Assembly: GCF_002113885.1 (NCBI RefSeq)
Contig: NW_018408820.1
Coordinates: 1,145,654 to 1,209,309 of the forward strand
Direction: 5' to 3'
DNA: 63,656 nucleotides
Source of the DNA: Mizuhopecten yessoensis
Taxonomy: Eukaryota
Positions 48,501 through 63,608 of the stretch are shown piece by piece (position 1 is the stretch's first letter; each line of letters opens with the position of its first letter). The notes beneath the pieces were generated by a model. That model saw nothing but the letters and a program-made list of their open reading frames with translations. It was not told where the DNA came from and did not search any database. The translations under genes were made by a program, and so were the position numbers.

Positions 48501-51500
48501 TATACTGAGAGAAATGATCCATCGTGGTTATCCAGTAGTGTATATAAATATCCAGTAGTGTATATAAGTACCCAGCAGTGTATATAAGTACCTAGCAGTG
48601 TATATAAGTACCTAGCAGTGTATATAAGTACCCAACAGTGTATATAAGTACCCAGCATTGTATATTCCGTCTTTGCATATTGCAGACTTATCTTCTCTTG
48701 GGAGCAGGTATTGATTGTTACGGCACTTGTTTGTGAGAGTAACGTCATCAATTTTCGAGAAAACGACGCAATTTTCACACACAGACCAATGACGTAACAA
48801 TCAATACCTGCTCCCAAGAGAAGATAACTCTACAATACGCAAAGATGGAATAAGTACCCAGCAGTATATATAAGTCCCCAGCAGTGTTTATAAGTACCCA
48901 GCAGTGTATATTCCGTCTTTGCATATTGCAGAGTTATCTTCTCTTGGGAGCAGGTATTGATTGTTACGTCACTTGTTTGTGAGAGTAACGTCATCAATTT
49001 TTGAGAAAACGACGNNNNNNNNNNNNNNNNNNNNNNNNNNNNNNNNNNNNNNNNNNNNNNNNNNNNNNNNNNNNNNNNNNNNNNNNNNNNNNNNTATATA
49101 AGTACCCAGCAGTGTATATAAGTACCCAACAGTGTATATAAGTACCCAGCAGTGTATGTAAGTACCCAGCAGTGTATGTAAGTACCCAGCAGTGTATGTA
49201 AGTACCCAACAGCGTATATAAGTACCCAACAGCGTATATAAGTACCCAGCAGTGTATATAAGTACCCAGCAGTGTATATATAAGTACCCAGCAGTGTATA
49301 TAAGTACCTAGCAGTGTATATAAGTACCCAACAGTGTATATAAGTACCCAGCAGTATATATAAGTACCCAGCAGTATATATAAGTACCCAGCAGTGTATA
49401 TAAGTACCCAGCAGTGTATATAAGTACCCAGCAGTGTATATAAGTACCCAGCAGTGTATATAAGTACCCAGCAGTGTATATAAGTACCCAGCAGTGTATA
49501 TAAGTACCCAGCAGTGTATATAAGTACCCAGCAGTGTATATAAGTACCCAGCAGTGTATATAAGTACCCAGCAGTGTATATAAGTACCCAGCAGTGTATA
49601 TAAGTACCCAGCAGTGTATATAAGTACCCAGCAGTGTATATAAGTACCCAGCAGTGTATATAAGTACCCAGCAGTGTATATAAGTACCCAGCAGTGTATA
49701 TAAGTACCCAACAGTGTATATAAGTACCCAGCAGTGTATATAAGTACCCAGCAGTGTATATAAGTACCCAGCAGTGTATATAAGTACCCAGCAGTGTATA
49801 TAAGTACCCAGCAGTGTATATAAGTACCCAGCAGTGTATATAAGTACCCAGCAGTGTATATAAGTACCCAGCAGTGTATATAAGTACCCAGCAGTGTATA
49901 TAAGTACCCAGCAGTGTATATAAGTACCCAGCAGTGTATATAAGTACCCAGCAGTGTATATAAGTACCCAGCAGTGTATATAAGTACCCAACAGTGTATA
50001 TAAGTACCCAACAGTGTATATAAGTACCCAACAGTGTATATAAGTAGGATATAATGTATCACCATCCTCGATACTCCATGAGTTAAAACGCTCACTTATG
50101 CTCTCTAGTACACCCCTGGGATACGTATTGACAAAATTGAAGGCTCAGTGTGCACCACCTTGTGGATGAGATGAAAAGACTAGTTTGATCCTTTGATGTA
50201 AAATTTAAAGAATCTCTTGATAGCCTAATGGTAAATTTGACAGGTTTTGAAGTCGTATTTTGCTCTTCTGTAATATTTAAAGGCCCAGGTATAAACCTAG
50301 CGATTGGCCAGTTTTTTTTACCTGATACCAATCAAATTTGCTGTGACATACTCCAGGGGTGCAGAGAGTGAAGGTGGGCGTAACCCTGGAGTATCAAGGA
50401 TGATGTATATGTTCACAATATATATATCTGTAGAGACAATCCTAGTCAGATAATGAAAGAAATCTGTTCCTATCAGAAACAAGAGTACCGCGGGGCGGAA
50501 CAAAATACGCCCGTTGAATGCAATATATATACTTTCTTACAATGAAATAATATCTGCATCATTCTAAGATTGGTTAGCTGATATGCTATAAAAAATGTAG
50601 GAGAAAATCTTCGGACAAAAAATCAAATACTGAAATGAACAAAAGGCAATAAATTTTGCAAAAATTGTTGAATCAAATTTCTTTTAAAGGAGACAACTTC
50701 ATATCATGATTATAAAGTATACCAAGTTTCAAAGAGATCCGGTGATAAATGAAGGAGATTGCTGGACAAAAATCAAATACTGAAATAAACAAAGGGCAAT
50801 AACCTTTGGAAAAATTATTGAATCAAAATTCTTTTAAGGGAGACATAACTTCATATCATGATTATGATATTTACCAAGTTTGAAAGAGATCGGTCAGAAA
50901 ATATAGGAGGAGATCTCCGGACAAAAATCAAATACTGAAATGAACAAAGGGCAATAACTATTGGAAAAATTGTCGAATCAAAATTCTTTTAAGGGAGACA
51001 CAACTTCATATCATAATTATAATGTATACCAAGTTTCAAATACATGTAGATCAGTCGAAAAATGTAGGAGGAGATTGCCGGACAAACAAAGTTTACGCCG
51101 GCCGGCCGGACAACGCCATACCATAATACTACCGTCAAATTTGACGGTCGTATAAAAAGGGTGTTCTCTCGAAAACCATTTGATTTACATGACATTAATA
51201 TTTGTTCCGACGTTATAATACTTAATACCTGTTGCGATGTTCCAGGGTGTTGCACTGTTCCTTGAGACCTCCAAGTTTTTTCTCTAGTTCACTTATCTGT
51301 TCTTCCTTTTCAGCAATAGCACCAGAAAATATACGAGCATTTTCATCTCTTAAACGAGAATTTTCCTCTCGCAGGTCTCTATTTGCTCTTTTGTATTCGT
51401 CTTTAATCTTAATCATTTCTTGATGATTGGACGCCAGGTCGTCAAACCTAGCATTGAGTATATTGTATTTCCTGATCTCTCCGTCCAACATCCCTTTAGA

Positions 51501-53772
51501 TGAATCCCGGAAGCTGATAAGTTCCTCATTGATTCTGTCCACAGATTTAGTTTTGGATGCGACTTCGTCTGAACGCTGTTTCAGAATCATGATCAACTGA
51601 GACTGTTCGTCAATACGAGAGCGAAGCATGGCCTTTTCTGTCTTATCATCAGCCGATAATCCCTTAAGTTTGGACAGGTTATTCTGCATATCAGACATGT
51701 CCTAAATAGAAAATGACAATTTAGATATGTATATATATATATTCAAAATATAATGAAAATTATTTCATTGTTTAGTATACTACATCAAAGACATACATTA
51801 TCAAGAAATTATTTTTCATTACATTATTTCAGCCACTGGCAGGCACTTCCCCCCAGCCAAAAATTGCCTTGTTTCCCCCAAAACCAAAGAAAATAATCCT
51901 CAAAAAAGGGAATATTTTCCCAATTTGTATAAATATGCCTGGTACTAAAATTTCTCAATTCATCCATGTATCGACTGCTGTAAGATTTAGGTAGAAAATA
52001 AAAACACTTTATTGAAATTGAGGACACTTTTCTTCACTATGACAAAAATTCATTCTCAAAAGAACACTCCATATATAAGAAACCTTTCAAACGTCCTGTC
52101 CGACTGGTAATTAATTTAGATGGATGACACCTGGTAAATGTTTACAGGTATTAATTGGCTCATTACACTGAGTTTACTTATGTACCTAATACAATAGATC
52201 ATAAGTTTATAATATAGCTATACATTGAATGTCCTTAAGCATCCTCGATACTCCAGGGGTTACGCTCACTTTCGCTAACTCTGCACCCCTGGAATATATG
52301 TCATAGTAAAATTGAAGGCACAAAGAAAGCTGTTTGATTGGTCTAGGGTTAAAAAACCTGACCAATCACTAGGCTGATACCTGCACTTTGAAGATTACAA
52401 AAGAGCGACACCCGACTTCAAAGCCTCTAAATTTTACCATTACGTGACCGCAAGATTCTTTTGATGAACATCAAAGGATCAAAATAGTCTTCTTGTCTCA
52501 TCAACAAGGTGGCGCACACTGAGCCTTCAATTTTGCTATGACATATTCCAGGGGTGCAGAGAGCAAAAGTTAACGTAACCCCTGGAGTGTAGAGGATGGT
52601 CCTTAAGTAGCAGAAAAGGTTTTGGCTATATGAAACGGTTAAATTAAAAAACAAATACTACTACACTTCACATAATACAAATGTACTACATGTATGCAAT
52701 GATGCAAGCTATGAAGCATTACCTAAAATGATATTGAGCATTTGTAAGCATAATAGCTATAGCCAGATATTGCAAAATGAAATACAATATGTAAAAAAAA
52801 ACCAGGCTATTCTTAATGTTTCACCATATATTACTAGAATCATTTTCCAACACTCACTAAATATTTACCAGAACATGGTTACAACATCAGCCATATTAAA
52901 AGTCAAATTTCTTTTAATCTAATATTTAGACTGAACTTTATGAATATAAATTAACATTTCCACACATATAAATGGCAAATCATCAAAGAATTTTTATTTA
53001 ATGTTATGTACTCTGTGGTCTGTGGGAAGGGTGAGGGATGGGAGTAGAGGAAAGTCATCAAAGGAAAAGTTCTGTTCTGATAAATCACTTAAATGGTCTG
53101 ATTTCAGTCTTACTAAAGATGATCATCATTCAGTAAGTGATAATTATGGGACTGAAAGCTTAAGGATTAAAATCTACTCACACCACACTTTAAAATAATG
53201 TATAAAGCCAGCACATTTTGCATGAATCTTGATGATTATCATACAAAGAGTAAGCATGCTTCATGTTATTAATCAGTGTAAAAATGAATGTCGTACGAAC
53301 AGTAGTAAACTAAATATTGAAAAATACTTTCATCTCTGTACATTTTCCATGATTTATATATATGTCCTGTACCAGTGATGAAATCTAATTTCCATGAAGC
53401 AGTATTTTCCTTGAATTTCAAACATGAAGAGGTAAAATGCAAAAGTGACGACCAATGGATTTTTTTTCAAGTTTCAGTTGGCGTTCATATTGACTTGTAT
53501 GAATGCCAACTGAAAGCAGTGTATAATAAATTGCACACCCCTGATTCAACAATGATATGCGCTCTGCATGCAAAATGACATCATACAAAGCAGCAGCTTA
53601 ATTACACTCTGGTCGCAACGCTAGGGAATATCAAACCACCACACGGAGCAGGGAAATGCGGGAACCGTCCTCCCACGGGTCATACCCAGAGTAAAAGCCT
53701 TTTAGGCGTCACCTTATCACTGTCCTCTACAACGGATCTGATGTCCTTCGGGTTTCTTGAATTTGACGACAT
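42589..53772 (-). CDS. CCDC89: Coiled-coil domain-containing protein 89, about 354 aa
   Basis: Exons 53772-53713, 51701-51229, 48045-47915, 46913-46777, 45873-45791, 42879-42786 and 42675-42589. All introns are GT-AG and the phases join into one ORF. Signature EKAMLRSRIDEQSQLIMILKQRSDE, LASNHQEMIKIKDEYK and C-terminal EFEAYKKHTNALLQRERDINEKLR. Confidence 0.9.
42931..43164. mobile_element. MITE (CAGGG...CCCTG termini); the same family occurs inverted at about 24963-25145
   Basis: Imperfect TIRs; the internal block CGGGTATAAA.CCTGG...TTTATGCAGGC.TTGCAAGGCTTTGT matches the reverse complement of about 25050-25115. Confidence 0.65.
43925..44270. mobile_element. Non-autonomous element with a long subterminal hairpin (44141-44240); class uncertain
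   Basis: AGGTTATTCAAACCC...GATAAAATATTGAGCA pairs with TGCTCAATATTTTATC...GGGTTTGAATAACCT. A similar architecture occurs at about 45917-46075. Confidence 0.5.
46550..46710 (-). mobile_element. tRNA-derived SINE with V-domain-like motif
   Basis: Minus strand shows an A box (TGGCACAATAG), a B box (GGTTCGATTCC) and GGGTTTTCTCCAGGTACTCTAGTTTCCTCCCAC. Confidence 0.75.
47625..47925. repeat. About 136-bp tandem duplication that triplicates the CCDC89 exon-3 splice donor
   Basis: AGTAGATGACCTACTTTTTAACCT occurs at 47628, 47764 and 47901. Confidence 0.9.
48525..50046. repeat. 20-bp minisatellite (CAGTGTATATAAGTACCCAG) in CCDC89 intron 2, containing two MITE-A copies and N-gap 49015-49094
   Basis: Highly homogeneous 20-bp periodicity. 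Confidence 0.96.
48665..48850. mobile_element. Foldback MITE family A, copy 4 (copy 5 at 48911-49014 is truncated by the gap)
   Basis: Same TIRs; both copies sit at GTATA^TAAGTA of the satellite unit. Confidence 0.9.
50063..50402. mobile_element. MITE family B, full-length diverged copy
   Basis: CATCCTCGATACTCCA...TGGAGTATCAAGGATG TIRs; the TSD is only partly conserved (ATGTAT). Confidence 0.8.
50478..51158 (+). mobile_element. HINE/pearl-like (non-autonomous Helentron-type) element with internal tandem repeats of about 155 bp
   Basis: AACAAGAG start, three to four internal repeats (GGACAAAAATCAAATACTGAAAT...), terminal hairpin ACCGTCAAATTTGACGGT followed by ATAAAAA. Related architectures at about 46950-47620, 57100-57700 and 62876-63483. 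Confidence 0.7.
52240..52598. mobile_element. MITE family B, complete copy with a 9-bp TSD (MULE-like)
   Basis: TIRs of about 80 bp; TSD GTCCTTAAG at 52231-52239 and 52599-52607. Confidence 0.88.
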
Positions 53773-55224: not shown

Positions 55225-55330
55225 TAGTGCCGTCGCTGGGGCTGGAACCCGCGACCCTTGACTCTCTAGCCCGATGCTCTACCGCTGAGCTAAAGGGAAA
55301 TTCCCTACAGTTGACGCTTGTAAGGCAACC
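55225..55330 (-). mobile_element. tRNA-derived SINE head
   Basis: Minus strand TAGCTCAGCGGTAGAGCA...GGGTCGCGGGTTCCAGCCCC; a partial homologue lies at about 31587-31635; there is no acceptor stem. Confidence 0.6.
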
Positions 55331-55671: not shown

Positions 55672-58600
55672 ATGTCTACTGTGACAAAAATCCTGTGGTC
55701 ACCCACTCAAAATGACCTGTTTCTCACTTATGGGTCAATGGTCAATCTATACAAGGTCACTCGGTGCAGTGAAAGCGATGCTTTCAAAGGGAAACCAGGT
55801 ATGTTGTACATACTCAATATAAACTCATTCAATGTACAGTATGAATTTTAGATTCAGAATTTACTGCTATAAACTTGTGAGGATCTTTTTTTAATTTTTA
55901 TTTTCAAACCCTCAAAAAATGACAGGATATATTGGCAATCTTAATTCAATTCAACTTTATTGCATTAGCAATGAAAGAAAGTTACATTATATGGATAGAA
56001 CCGACCAGCAAATTAACACAACAGTAACAAAAATATAAGAACTGTACTCAGAATATAAGCATAATATTGAACTTGAGCACTTTGCAAGCCAGCCTTTATC
56101 CTCAGTTCAAAAGACTTTTTAATGAAGAGACCCAAATCATGCAAAAGGTTTGGTTCATTTAATGATGTATTTGTATGTCATTTAATGATGTATTTGTATG
56201 TCATTTAATGATGTACTTGTATGTCATTTAATGATGTATTTATATGTCATTTAATGATGTAATTGTATGTCATTTAATGATGTATTTGTTTGTCATTTAA
56301 TGATGTAATTGTATGTCATTTAATGATGTAATTGTATGTCCTTTAATGATGTAATTGATCTATTTATTTTGAAAAATAATAACTTTTCATTATTTCATAT
56401 TACTAGTTTTCATGTATCACCCTTTGAAACAATGTTATACAATGTTCTAAAGAAAAAAGGTTGAGTAAATGTCATGGTTTATAATTGATGGTTTATATAT
56501 ATATTCATTCCAGTATATTTGAATCTTTTCTCAATAGCAACAAGACTGTCGGACCATACCTACGGCATCCACGTGGCTGTTAATTCTGGAATACAATATT
56601 TAAAGGTAAGGCCATCTGGTAAAGACTACAGGACGGCTTGGTTAACGTTGTTATCTACTTAAAGCTGACAGTGCAAGTTAAAAGCTTTCAATTGAGATTA
56701 AAAACAGTATATTTTTTTTTCAAGTATTTTTTTCTGGTTTTGAGATCTTCTCCATCTCTTCCGACTATCGTTTCCAAGGAAGTGTCAACATTTAAGTTTG
56801 TCCTTGCTTGGTAACAAGTATGGGTCTCGCTGGGTATACCAAACAAGGACAAACTAAAATGTTGGCACTTCCTTAGAAACGGATAGTCAAAAGAGATATC
56901 TCAAAACCAGAAAAAAATGAACTTTTTTTAATTTTTTTTATCTCAATTGAAAGCTTTTTATCTTGCACTGTCAGCTTTATGCTCTGGACCATACAAGTCT
57001 CTGAAATGTCATGGGGAGTTTTATTTTTACATTAACACCATCACATACACTATAACATCACATGTAATAACGACAAATTCATTTTGAAAGGTAAAGTGTT
57101 TTTTAAGGTCGACTGAGCTCTGCTCAATTGACCTATTTAATCACATAAGATTATTGCTTTTCATTCGACATAGGTAAACTTTTTTTTTATTTTTGGCTTC
57201 TTTTAAGAACCAATGAAGGATTTCTTTCCAACTTGGTGAGGATCGTCCTTGGTAGAAAAGTGTTTCAAATTGTAAAATGCAGTTCATACCCCACCCAAGG
57301 GGTCTTCAAGGAAGGGCTCAAAAGGGGAAATTGACCAAAATTCAAAAATTCTCTCCTTCATACCAAGAGGTCCTAAAATCAGATATGCTGCATAGATGGG
57401 AAAAAAATGTTACCCCGGGGTCAAACATTTTTCCCTGTGGTGGTGTTAAAATTTACCAGTAGCTTCGATATTCAAAAATATACCACCTTTTGTATATTTC
57501 TTATATTTTCTAGTGGAAATAATTCAAACTAGGTTAGAATTATCTTTGATGAGTGGAAGTTTGATGGTATGCAAGTTTAGACTCTGACCCCACTCTTGTG
57601 TCTAAGAGGTGGATCCAAAGGGTGAAAATTGGCTAAAATTTTGGGGGAAAAAATCTACTTCAGACCAAGAAATAAGTGTCTTAAGATGTTTTATGAGATA
57701 TGTAAATTTCGTTAACATTCGTTAAGTATTTGTCTGTGACTAACATTCTAGGTATTTACAAATCCTTAAAAAGTTATTCTAAATATTATGAAAGTGTTTG
57801 TATTTTTTGTTTTCTTTAATAAGTTATTATCAGTACCTGGATACTTTATTGACAGGACTCTGTTTGCTTTCAGACTATTGCCTGGTACCCTGGCAGAGAT
57901 GAGCAGGATAATCTAATAGCTGTCGGACAGCAAAATGGCAAAATCGTTCTGTCCAGGTAAAATTATTGTTCTGTCCAGGTAACAAAATCATTCTGTCCAG
58001 GTAACATGATCATTCTGTCCAGATAACAAGATCAATCTGTCCAGGTAACAAGATCATTCTGTCCAGATAACAAGATCATTCTATCCAGGTAACATAATCA
58101 TTCTATCCAGGTAACAAGATCATTCTGTCCAGGTAACATAATCATTCTATCCAGGTAACATAATCATTCTATCCAGGTAACAAGATCATTCTGTCCAGGT
58201 AACAAGCTCATTCTGTCCAAGTATCAAGATCATTCTATCCAAGTAATAAGATACTTCTGTCCAGGTAACGAGATCATTCTATCCAGGTAACAAGATCATT
58301 CTGTCAAGGTAACAAGATACTTCTGTCCAGGTAACAACCAGGGAACAAGATCATTCCGTCCTGGTAACAAAATTATTCTGTCTAGGTAGCAAACATTGGA
58401 AAAATTTAAATGCAAGTGACAGAAGAAAAGGGGTGATATTATAATATTGTTTTATGATTAAAATTAAGAATCTTTCACAACATGTATTTCAGTATTAATT
58501 TTGTATCATTTACTGGTATGCCTTATTATTTTATTCTTTCATGTTTTTTCATATTCAATTTTAGTTTTGGACAACCAGGTTGCAGTGATCTTGTTGGAAA

Positions 58601-61600
58601 AGAATTCAGTAAGTGTTATATATTTTACACAAAAAGTTTTCAGAATTTTATCCACATTTGTGTATACGTATATATGGCTTTTAACCGTTTTCAACCGTTG
58701 AAAAATGAACTGGAATGATATGAATGTTTTAATTGTTCCTATTATTTTGGAAATTTAAAAGTAAAATATTACTGAACCTTTCAGGTCCCAAACACAGCAG
58801 ATCATGTGCATACTTGGCATGGAATCCCGTGGAAACCAATTTGGTAACTATGTAGATTTGAGTAATTTGACAATAACAATAGATCTGAAACACAGTCCTG
58901 TACCTTATAGCTGGAAACATGATAAAAGTAAAGATCAATCTCATACAAAAGGAAAGTCACCCAATTTAAAGAAGTATGTTTGACACGGTTTTATCCATTC
59001 TGTTATTGAAACATTTCTTCTTCCTCAGGCCGCAGTGGCCAAGTGGTTAAGGCGTCTGGCAATCTGCTACCCCTTGCTCTCTACCACTAGGTCGTGGTTT
59101 CGAGACCTACATGGGGCAGTCGCCAGATACTGGCCGTAAGTCAGTGGTTTTTCTCTGTGAACTCCGGCTTTCCTCCACCACCAAAACCTGGCACGTCCTT
59201 AAATGACCATAGCTGTAAATAGGATGTAAAACACAAACATACCAAACACTTCCTCAGGAAATAAACATTAAAACACACCTTGTGTATGTTAAGTTGTTGT
59301 GGAATTTTAATATCTGGACCACAAAGTTCCATCATCTTATATCAAAGTGCTGTACGTACCCCTGTTTATGTGGTATGTGTGTCGCAATACGTATTTTATG
59401 CTGATGTCGCTGTTGTGTTGCCAGATAGCGGAGGGTCTAGAGAAGTACAGGAGTGACCCCTGTATCCTGATCTGGGATATCCATGCCAAGCCGGGCAGTG
59501 AGATCACTTCTAGTCTGGAGCGACAACGTTACAGCTCCTCCATTAGTGAATCCAGCGTCATCACCAAGCCTATCACAGAACTGGGTAACTACAATGAAAT
59601 CTGTCTTTACTGACATCTAAATGACTTAAATATTTGGTCTGGTATGGTACTGTGTCAGTAAAGCCAGTATTAAGACAAAGAAACCAGTGGTTAGCGACAT
59701 AAGTCGTCCATTGATAAAAACAGTCAGCAATGTCAGATGTCAGTAAATTCAGTTGTCAGTAAAATCAGTCAGATGTCGGTAAATTCAGTTGTCATTATAA
59801 TTAGTCAGATGTCGGTGAATTCAGTTGTCAGTAAAATCAGTCATATGTTAATAAATTCAGTTTTCAGTTAAACGAGTTGTCATTTAAGTTAGGTGTCAGA
59901 AAAATCAGATGTCACTGAAACCAGTCAAGCATCAGTTAAGTCTTTGTCAATAAAACTGGTTTGATGTTGTTTTTAAAACCAGTCAAGTTTCAGTACAGTC
60001 GGTTATCAGTAGAACCAGTCAGGTGTCAGTTATGCCAGTCATAAGTAAAGTCAGTTGTCAGTAAAATCAGTCAGGTGTCATAAAATCATTTGTCAGTTAA
60101 AAATAACCATCTGTCAGTAAAGTCAGGTGTCAGTAAAGTCAGGTGTCAGTAAAGTCAGGTTTCTGTCTGCAGTGTTAGATAACATCAGTATTCCAATTTC
60201 AGTGATCTGAAACTACTACCTATGTCCTAAAGGATTGCTTTTACTTATGTACATTTACATACTAAAAATTAAAACAATTCATGATTCTGGAGCAAGATTT
60301 AAGTCTAATGTATATATGCCAAAGTATCATTTACAACTTCACAAATCAAGCCCAGTGTTTTTAGGACTGCTTAGATATTAGTGAAGCTGAGGTCCTCATC
60401 TTTATCTATTCTGTATTTGCGAATTGCAGAGTTATCTTCTCTTGTGACCAGGTATTGATTGTTACGTCATTGGTTTTTGTGAGAAAATTACGTCGTTTTC
60501 TCAAAAATTGATGACGTTACTCTCACAAACCAATGACGTAACAATGAATACCTGCTCACAAGAGAAGATAACTCTGCAATACGCAAAGACAGAATTGACC
60601 TTCTGTTACATTTCAATTCCCTTTAGCTGATTTTGATCTTTTCCTATTTGAACTGTTCTGACCTTTGTGTTTGTTTGACAGGTCCGGGTGATACTACAGG
60701 GTCCCTCGCCTGGTTCCAAAAGGACTCCAAGACATTTGCAGCAGGGTTGGGCTCCAAGTACATCAAGATCTTTGATTTAAGAGGTACTGTTATCTCTGAT
60801 TAAAGTATGGTAAACAATCAAATATATATCCCTGTTACTCAAAATCTACTGTAGCTGCGGGAACCGTAGCTTCTAGGCCCGATCTTTAAAAAAAAATAAT
60901 CTATGGACCGATAACAATAAAAAAAAAAAAAGTCGGCCTAGAAGCTATGGTTCCCGCAGCTCAATCTACTGTAACCTCGGTGCAAATTTATAAACGTTTG
61001 AACAAACTTTTCTTTTAGATTTTCTAGGTTTTACTTTTCACAGGAAAAAAAAGTTTAAATCCGTGTAGAGAAAAATCTGTAGATAATATGTAACCAAATA
61101 TGTAATAAAATTGAATGGAACACACTAATGATCATATTGTCACATATCAGAAATCGGGGGAAAATGTAAACGTGAATCAAATCAAATGCGAATGTTTCAT
61201 GGTGCAGCTGTATCAAGGTGAATAGTTTTTCTAGGGTTTAATAAAACAAACAATTTGTTAAGGAATATAAACAGTGATTACCTTCCTAAAGCAGCACTGT
61301 TTGAAACTAAACTAAAACGGACAATGGGCGTTAAGGGGAAATTTGCTTAAAAATTGTCATAACAGTGTTCATTCGTAGAAAGGAATTTTTGTTTGTCAAA
61401 TGTGAAGGCTTTCAGTTCTGCATGCTAACTGCCTAAAAAAAAACATCTTTTGGCTATTTTTGCATAGCAACGCAATTTTGTTGCTATGGTAGGGCATCTA
61501 CAAATGCACCAAGAAAGATGGCCCCAATAAACAAATATGATGTTAATAATAGAAAATGTTAAATTAATTCAAGTTGAAATTTTCACTTTGTATGAGGCCA

Positions 61601-63608
61601 AAAATTACCCATAATGCACCAAGTCCTTTGACTTGTTGTCTGTGTTTGATTCTCTCAGAGTTTTCATAATTTATTGATCAACTCACAAACTGAAAAAATT
61701 AAGACAACATCTTGATACAATCACTGTCCTCTTTCGCCAGAGACAAGCAGACAGCACCTGACTACGAACACCAAGAGTGTTTATGGTATATGTATGGACC
61801 CCAAGAACGATTATAGACTAGCCTCCTACCATGAGGTAAGTTTTCTACCAAAGCTTTGGTTCAACTATCTCAAAAGAGCAAACTTACAACAAACTGTTAC
61901 CCTGTTCAAACCAAACTCTGTGGAATCTGGAAACCTGTGGAAATCAGAATATCAATAAAAATATTAACCCTTTCACCACTGTAGACCATAATGGACTCAC
62001 CCAGATCAATGCATGGGAGAGTCAACTAAAGTTACATGGGGGTGAGAGAGTTAACATGTTTGAGGCTGAGTTTGATTGTGGATGTGATCTGTAGAAACCA
62101 GAATACTAACGCCATCTGAGCCCTGAACATTTGTGTATTAATGTGAAAAGTTCTGAAAATGTCCTTCTGTTGCAATAGAAATGTTTGTTTATAAATCCTA
62201 AGGTTGTGTCAGTATGAATATCTTAATAGAAAGCTGTCTTTTAAAATTTTGATAACAGAACTTTTTTATATATTGGTAGATTTCTTCTGCTTAAACTTTT
62301 ATGTAGCTTCTGTATGACTTGTTCTGAATACAAACACTATGCTTGTTTTCTATGAATCCCTATTTGATGTTAATATGATGTACATGTACATACACAATAT
62401 AAATAGGATACTTCACCCTGTTTGTGAAGTACTAAATTGACTTGTTTATATCTTAACTTATAGTTACTGATCTGTGTCCATTTGTTTTATTTCAGAATCA
62501 GGTTTCTGTGTGGGACATCAGGAATTTTGATAAACCTGTATCCTTGACATGTTCTCTGTGTAGTGTACAGTAACAATAGTTCTGACGATGAGGCTTGGAC
62601 TCGACTCTGATAAATCGTGTACAAACGTATAGCAATATAGTCTTGTAATATATCAAAGGTGAAGTTTCTTCCGAGTGGGAAGATGTGATATTTTGAAAAA
62701 TTGAAGGTTTACTTCCACATAAGTTTTTTTCATAAAGTCTGGTGTAGATGCATATTAAATAAGGATTGAATAGAATTTTTTTCAATTTCATGCTGGTATG
62801 AACACGAATCGGTAACATACATATTCCATGAATCCCGATAATAAGACCTTCCTGTCGCATTGCACTGTATAGCTTTATTTGTTATGCCCCCGCCATAAAA
62901 TGGGGGGCATATAGTGTTGCCCATTTCTGTCCCGTCCCATCCCGTCCCGATTCTATGTAAACACTTAGCAACTTCATTCTTTGACAGATTTTGGTCAAAC
63001 TTTATACAAAGGTCAAATATGAGTATACTTCGGACATCTTTGTGTTTCAGGGATCCAAGGTCAAGGCCAAGGTCACACTTGCTATATATAGAAAATCATC
63101 AACTGATTCAATTTAAACACTTAGCAACTTCATTCTTTCATGGATTTTGGTCAAACTTTATGCAAAGGTCAAGTATGAGTATACTTCAGACATGGTTGTG
63201 TTTCAGGGTTCCAAGGTCAAGGCCAAGGTCACTGTTGCTATATATAGAAAATCATCAACTGATTCAATTTAAACACTTAGCAACTTCATTCAATATGTTA
63301 TGGAGTTGGTAATAACATACAGAAAGAAACATATGAATATTAAAATCAACTTTAAGTGTAGTACCTTTTGTGTGTGCATGTTTCAGGGTATCAAGATCAA
63401 AGTGGTTGTAACTTTTTATAGAACACTGAAACTAATTTCACATGGCAGCGGGGGCATTTATGTCTTACAGACATTTTCTAGTTTTACACAAGAACTAATA
63501 TGGATTCGACCTTAAGTGATGATCATTTATTTGTCCTTGACCTTTAATCTAGATAATGACATTTCCAGAAGCAAAGCCAGTAGTCCAGATTGGTTGGTGT
63601 CCAACCAG
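55672..63608 (+). CDS. MIOS: GATOR2 complex protein MIOS (WD40 N-terminal region; the gene continues beyond the window)
   Basis: Exons 55672-55798, 56538(or 56514)-56605, 57874-57956, 58565-58608, 58785-58843, 59425-59584, 60682-60783, 61741-61835, 62496-62537 and 63553-63608, with consistent phases. Peptides ILWSP, IAWYP..LIAVGQQNGKIVLS, DLVGKEFSPKHSRSC..LAWNP, GLEKYRSD...LIWDI, IKIFDLR, VWDIRNFDKP and WCPTR match MIOS. Confidence 0.93.
56155..56357. repeat. 23-bp tandem repeat (GTCATTTAATGATGTATTTGTAT), about 9 copies
   Basis: Directly visible. Confidence 0.9.
56660..56979. mobile_element. About 320-bp foldback MITE (TTAA-AG termini, Kolobok-like)
   Basis: TAAAGCTGACAGTGCAAG..AAAAGCTTTCAATTGAGAT is mirrored by ATCTCAATTGAAAGCTTTT..CTTGCACTGTCAGCTTTA; nearly the whole element is an inverted repeat. 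Confidence 0.75.
57946..58392 (+). repeat. 22-bp minisatellite (ATTCTGTCCAGGTAACAAGATC), about 20 copies, derived from a MIOS exon/intron junction
   Basis: The first unit is the authentic exon end plus donor, GTTCTGTCCAG|GTAAAA, at 57956/57957. Confidence 0.92.
59028..59248 (+). mobile_element. Complete tRNA-derived SINE with V-domain-like motif and 8-bp TSD
   Basis: A box TGGCCAAGTGG, B-box-like GGTTTCGAGACC, GGTTTTTCTC.GTGAACTCCGGCTTTCCTCC, AC-rich tail, TSD CTTCCTCA on both sides. Confidence 0.85.
60409..60594. mobile_element. Foldback MITE family A, copy 6
   Basis: Same TIRs, A^T flanks. Confidence 0.88.
60852..60962. mobile_element. 111-bp MITE with a 9-bp TSD (MULE-like)
   Basis: TIR AGCTGCGGGAACC.TAGCTTCTAGGCC; TSD AATCTACTG at 60843-60851 and 60963-60971. 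Confidence 0.85.
62538..63552 (+). other. U12-type (minor spliceosome) GT-AG intron of MIOS
   Basis: 5' splice site GTATCCTT; branch site TCCTTGAC at 63534-63541 close to the AG at 63551-63552; no long polypyrimidine tract; the flanking exons join in frame (FDKP|IMTF). Confidence 0.85.
62876..63483 (-). mobile_element. HINE/pearl-like element inside the U12 intron
   Basis: Terminal hairpin ATGCCCCC..GGGGGCAT, (GTCCC) microsatellite, internal tandem repeats of about 155 bp, and a ...TTCTAGTT end. Confidence 0.7.

Follow-up and report, generated by a model that had tools for sequence, protein, structure and literature searches.

A minisatellite that repeats an exon end together with its 5' splice site in the MIOS gene of the scallop Mizuhopecten yessoensis

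The 22-bp minisatellite at the exon 3/intron 3 boundary of the scallop MIOS gene belongs to the known class of donor-reiterating minisatellites (F7/CBS type, 'mirage'): its first unit spans a real boundary, its downstream units are donor-like, and at the low depth available the most upstream donor dominates the mature RNA. We conclude that the array is probably a slippage-born, near-neutral passenger that reiterates the end of exon 3 together with its donor, since in the spliced RNA observed no donor but the first is used. Taken alone, the locus adds one example to an established class and tells us little about the control of mTORC1. Positions are those of the window, the whole stretch of 63,656 nt that was analysed (contig NW_018408820.1, 1,145,654 to 1,209,309).

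The gene was identified as MIOS from a chain of 26 exons, built by mapping one of two scallop MIOS proteins onto the genome, which encodes 874 residues without an internal stop and is identical to scallop MIOS at 770 of 874 positions with no gaps. The two scallop MIOS proteins returned by a protein search are 92% and 89% identical over exon 6, and the Pfam families MIOS_WD40 and MIOS_a-sol were found on the scallop MIOS homolog; the exons of the window match MIOS weakly in Pfam and PDB, as is expected of such short pieces. The reading frame across the exon 3/4 junction (donor 57956, acceptor 58565) is kept in both scallop homologs. Sixteen further exons lie outside the window, and those inside it are listed here with intron 3.

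55672-55798, forward strand: first coding exon of MIOS (homolog mapping)
56538-56605, forward strand: exon 2 (homolog mapping)
57874-57956, forward strand: coding exon 3, 83 nt, the last 18 nt being array unit 1 (homolog mapping, profile matches, RNA depth)
57957-58564, forward strand: intron 3, 608 nt, about 70% of it array (exon model and RNA contigs)
58565-58608, forward strand: exon 4, its acceptor joined to the end of exon 3 in 3/3 RNA contig sets
58785-58843, forward strand: exon 5, the joint 58608-58785 present in 3/3 RNA contig sets
59425-63608, forward strand: exons 6-10, at 59425-59584, 60682-60783, 61741-61835, 62496-62537 and 63553-63608 (homolog mapping)

Three minor features were noted around this gene model. 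A segment of 42 nt (L006:1178-1219), in frame, free of stops and bordered by AG and GT, is missing from the two scallop MIOS proteins and is a possible alternative exon. On the minus strand, a 156-aa open exon at 51231-51698, with a weak Pfam match below the cut-off, is part of a gene arranged head to head with MIOS. Insertions that look tRNA-like and SINE-like by eye are present in MIOS introns at 59025-59250 and 55230-55300.

The original prediction held that about 20 tandem units had been amplified from a MIOS exon/intron junction, and repeat finding (TRF period 22, 86% matches) recovered exactly 20, while the junction origin is upheld by a 16/18 match between the unit and the MIOS coding sequence, far beyond chance (P about 7e-8). 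The phasing proposed at that time, the last 11 exonic plus the first 11 intronic nucleotides, had to be replaced, since 18 exonic bases plus GTAA fit better (20/22 at start 57939 against 17/22 at start 57946). Units 1-18 follow one another in register between 57939 and 58334; an 11-nt spacer separates them from units 19-20 at 58346-58389, and every unit agrees with the consensus at 17-22 of its 22 nucleotides. The features of the array and of its splice signals are the following.

57939-58389, forward strand: minisatellite, 22 bp x 20, the unit being the last 18 nt of exon 3 plus GTAA (repeat finding, unit alignment)
57954-57962, forward strand: true donor CAG|GTAAAA, with cleavage following 57956; no other donor was observed in RNA (RNA reads and contigs, homolog frame)
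57958-57960, forward strand: in-frame TAA met at codon 94 on read-through of the first donor (translation)
57976-58391, forward strand: pseudo-donors at 19 downstream positions (every 22 nt from 57978 to 58330, plus 58363 and 58385), 17 of them with GT (translation, donor scores, unit counts)
58390-58393, forward strand: CAAA, also the first 4 nt of unit 1 (57939-57942), a likely slippage microhomology (array flanks)

Conservation among the units is uneven. YAG|GT is kept in 14/20 units, and so is AG|GTAA; among the 19 downstream copies GT is kept in 17 and AG|GTAA in 13, the other six having lost it, with changes scattered across the unit. The motif TTCTRTCCAG|GTAAC, which according to the earlier statement most copies keep, is present exactly in 11/19 downstream copies. 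The GT of the copies shows no clear sign of having been purged or of being protected. Arrays on C76725 and C2845, 67-74% similar, were rejected as a source of the unit, having only the CAGGTAACA core in common and other periods.

It is scarcely credible that the array is an artefact of assembly. The reads and contigs compared cover its two ends, but the units differ from one another in an ordered way and units 19-20 are spanned by contigs of X15 and X1. A single X15 contig contains these two units and the rest of the stretch with 3 other letters in 676 bases (the sole one listed at 58972), and the X1 contigs containing them have 0 other letters.

The copies had been described as donors about as good as the true site, and this agrees with a small weight matrix built from 24 MIOS donors, in which the common copy CAG|GTAACA scores 8.5 and the true CAG|GTAAAA 8.3. 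The in-frame stop described beyond the true donor was likewise confirmed: because the TAA of codon 94 lies just past 57956, a transcript spliced from any of the 19 downstream positions would carry one and the same truncated frame, ending at codon 94, as in a poison alternative 5' splice site, where an alternative donor leads to a premature stop. RNA structure was ruled out as a means of hiding the pseudo-donors, since 99 of 100 shuffled sequences fold better than the RNA of the array (z +2.4). The likeness of the units to 3' splice sites stood in part: 14/20 units have the short pyrimidine run and YAG|GT, but their acceptor scores are only low to moderate, with AG-keeping units at 2.3-8.5, apart from a single exception at -0.7, where the 25 real MIOS acceptors, scored in-sample, range over 4.5-13.7.

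Back-to-back AG|GT is also the geometry of recursive (ratchet) splice sites, and the units would then remove intron 3 stepwise. In favour of that reading, 14/20 units keep YAG|GT with a short pyrimidine run, and it would leave an identical final junction, hence its compatibility with the RNA reads and contigs. We nevertheless regard it as extremely improbable: intron 3 measures only 608 nt, whereas recursive splicing is known from long introns in the available text of PMC4829307; AG|GT is also the plain look of an exon end followed by a donor, which is where these units come from; their acceptor signals are moderate, with scores at the low end; and no intermediate was present among three raw reads. 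Recursive splicing found no backing in this intron. Separately, a TTTCAG precedes the exon 4 acceptor by 72 nt (58493-58564), and an unspliced X3 contig begins 3 nt behind it; no joint in the RNA contigs supports its use as an acceptor.

Evidence on donor choice came from assembled RNA contigs and from raw reads. In three contig sets from two studies (X1, X2 and X3, of which X1 and X3 belong to one study and are only guessed to be RNA), the sequence joined ahead of 58565 is the end of exon 3 in 3/3, and no joint between an array unit and exon 4 was found in these contigs, which drop rare forms and derive from material with NMD unblocked. Four runs of raw reads, again with no NMD block, were searched against 57640-57982 and gave 5 reads in total, with 0 from run X22; 3/5, representing two molecules from runs X19 and X23, reach the end of exon 3 and all of them stop at 57956, with entry into intron 3 in 0/3 of these informative reads. 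Word shares of 0.15-0.20 in further RNA runs were not counted as evidence. Junctions into 58565 were thus seen from 57956 only, in shallow RNA with no NMD block, and the fallback position that the cell must strongly choose the first donor is consistent with three of three contig sets and three of three informative raw reads, at low depth.

Unspliced contigs of intron 3 were nonetheless present, at a depth of 3.2 versus 23.8 for spliced contigs in X1 and of 14.5 versus 19.1 in X3, and none of intron 4 were found in X1 or X3. These contigs count against the near-neutral reading, as do the roughly 4-fold excess of donor arrays over the neutral rate described below and the use of the nearest pseudo-donors in human CBS and IFI6, where the two closest are also used (as cited in the available text of PMC1557585). 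An alternative reading is that the array might slow or partly block removal of intron 3 through crowding of U1, or leak to donors 2-3, with MIOS output slightly reduced as unit number rises and no selection involved. The equal scores of the pseudo-donors and the true donor, the unspliced contigs in two of three RNA sets and the CBS and IFI6 precedents all speak for such an effect; but no array-to-exon-4 joint was found in the contigs, 0/3 raw reads cross the donor, and the unspliced contigs may derive from pre-mRNA or from DNA, so that we consider it rather unlikely.

Arrays are not confined to this boundary; they start at 5/25 MIOS donors, and together include 13 copies of AAG|GTAAGG.

Exon 3 donor: 22 bp x 20
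Exon 11 donor: 39 bp x 3
Exon 18 donor: 58 bp x 13
Exon 22 donor: 35 bp x 55
Exon 25 donor: 24 bp x 38

With exon 3 set aside, 4/24 MIOS donors carry arrays against a background of 2.65% at intronic GT (P 0.003). Of the 25 acceptors, one has an array of copies upstream (107 x 4) and another seems to have one in decayed form. The former array (107 bp x 4, L006:5124-5558) contains upstream copies of the exon 17 acceptor with the first 40 exon bases, and the AA|GTAAGG in each copy makes it resemble a row of decoy mini-exons; a 37-bp x 7 array at L006:2465-2732 resembles the exon 14 acceptor, the AG being lost in most copies.

The 3' part of MIOS is assembled three times, and the unit numbers of its arrays differ between the copies, for example 55/5/44 and 38/59/26. 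These copies stand in tandem at a spacing of 30-35 kb (G000:C5493, about 1209000-1302000, L006-L015), encode nearly identical protein, and are either a true duplication or uncollapsed haplotypes. At the exon 22 donor (G000:C5493:1232352-1232360 in L008; 86701 in extended window coordinates), copy 1 reads AG|GG, followed by about 54 intact units with AG|GT, where copies 2 and 3 read AG|GT; the AG|GG may reflect an error of sequencing or an allele that is broken, or may offer a natural experiment on whether splicing falls back to the second unit.

Minisatellites are abundant in this genome, with 211 in an arbitrary 1.12-Mb sample, where they occupy 15% of bases. An independent test of their position relative to splice sites used the predicted sites of 210/213 myosin and kinesin profile matches, three being dropped as duplicates or for lying at a contig end. 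Over all predicted sites, 13/206 donors start an array versus 1.37% of intronic GT, and 0/209 acceptors end one versus an expected background of 1.5%. In a stricter set, limited to splice sites <=30 nt from the end of the profile match, the counts were 11/194 donors (5.7%, interval 2.9-9.9%, on 9/55 contigs) versus 0/201 acceptors (P 0.0003). The 11 donor arrays compare with 2.5 expected from GC-matched positions, by which GC content was rejected as the cause of the excess, and with 2.4 expected from offsets 60-280 nt behind the same donors. The excess comes from the kinesins (10/113 donors; myosins 1/81).

Counts of tandem motifs across the genome gave 4937 and 5875 matches for two triple donor patterns versus 769 and 1527 for their reversed controls, and 1859 for the triple acceptor pattern versus 2225 for its reversed control; these are counts per unit, in which long arrays weigh heavily. 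Antisense donor-like motifs at array edges occur at about the background rate. An annotation-free test on 408 array edges in the 1.12 Mb gave no significant excess of predicted donors at six of seven thresholds (P 0.09-0.45), with P 0.04 at the lowest one; because it relied on a small, weak exon predictor, it speaks neither for nor against enrichment. Pfam domains were found in 0/10 candidate exons ahead of arrays. In the myosin and kinesin sample, then, arrays start at donors about four times as often as the local background predicts, and none crosses an acceptor (0/201), the weaker annotation-free test being not significant. The exon 3 array is not special to this site, since arrays start at 5/25 MIOS donors and at 11/194 myosin and kinesin donors.

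The donor excess invites a broader proposal, in which minisatellites arise actively at scallop splice donors. Decoy arrays would then sit at about 6% of donors, likely in the thousands across the genome and 4-fold over background, with acceptors spared, through splicing-coupled mutation or through selection for extra U1 sites; unit number would set splicing output genome-wide like a dial, and MIOS exon 3 would be one instance. We hold this to be doubtful. Still less likely, in our view, is a selected poison-splicing switch, tunable by copy number, on MIOS and thus on mTORC1 signalling, as the original prediction had suggested. It would draw on the identical early stop from every downstream donor and on the surplus of arrays at the other MIOS donors, but no downstream-donor product was seen in the shallow RNA, kinesin genes carry the same arrays, as do four other MIOS donors and about 6% of unrelated ones, AG|GTAA has decayed in 6/19 copies with changes spread over the unit, and GT is neither clearly purged nor protected. 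Tuned control of this mTORC1 regulator is for these reasons without support.

For the near-neutral passenger that we prefer, a simple history may be proposed. The array would have been born by replication slippage between two CAAA motifs 22 bp apart, and slippage between short repeats at that distance fits because the CAAA opening unit 1 returns right after unit 20. Growth may then have proceeded by unequal exchange, the copies presumably staying silent through an upstream-first choice of donor, as in human F7. Donor arrays would accumulate if the adjoining exon shields them from large deletions: deletion of a whole array within an intron would be harmless and one reaching the exon harmful, so exon-anchored arrays would last longer. 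Acceptor arrays would be scarce because an upstream acceptor copy would tend to be used and hence removed. The donor excess may therefore need no function. A genome with a few percent of its donors trailed by twins of equal strength represents many natural copies of the F7 experiment, on which one could test at large scale whether 5' splice sites are chosen upstream-first in a mollusc, and the asymmetry between donors and acceptors would show how splicing rules filter the sites at which repeats survive.

The closest known system is the 37-bp VNTR of human F7 intron 7, whose first unit likewise spans the exon/intron boundary, whose donor is reiterated downstream, and whose pseudo-donors are functional with only the most upstream site chosen (PMC1557585, available text). 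The two differ in that the scallop array has 20 units of 22 bp with 18 exonic bases and F7 has 5-9 units of 37 bp with 4 exonic bases, and in that the scallop copies, which are putative donors, deviate from the true donor at +5. The same article (Borensztajn et al. 2006) lists minisatellites of IFI6, CBS, LMNB2 and PDGF, and the scallop array has the anatomy and a copy number similar to those in CBS intron 13 (15-20 units), IFI6/6-16 intron 2 (25 pseudo-sites), LMNB2 and PDGF; unlike in CBS and IFI6, no use of the nearest two pseudo-donors was seen for MIOS exon 3, at low depth. Tandem repeats at human exon-intron boundaries are the subject of PMC2812944. Among invertebrates, the 'mirage' minisatellites of lancelet Adh3, globins, TnC and PGBD5 (PMC3087553, with alignments in its supplements, and PMC3902484) are also boundary duplications of variable length, several per gene or genome, and the available text reports splicing as undisturbed; they affect both boundary types in a cephalochordate, whereas our molluscan sample is strongly donor-sided. 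No genome-wide count of donor arrays was found among titles and abstract openings in an incomplete collection of the literature.

Perfect AG|GTAAGT donor arrays were also observed behind exon-like sequence at L136:1575-1697 (41 units), L047:1447-3092 (at least 38 units) and L030:1400-1665 (6 units). Pfam gave no match for the exon-like sequences of L136 and L030, and the former presumably resembles NOM1.
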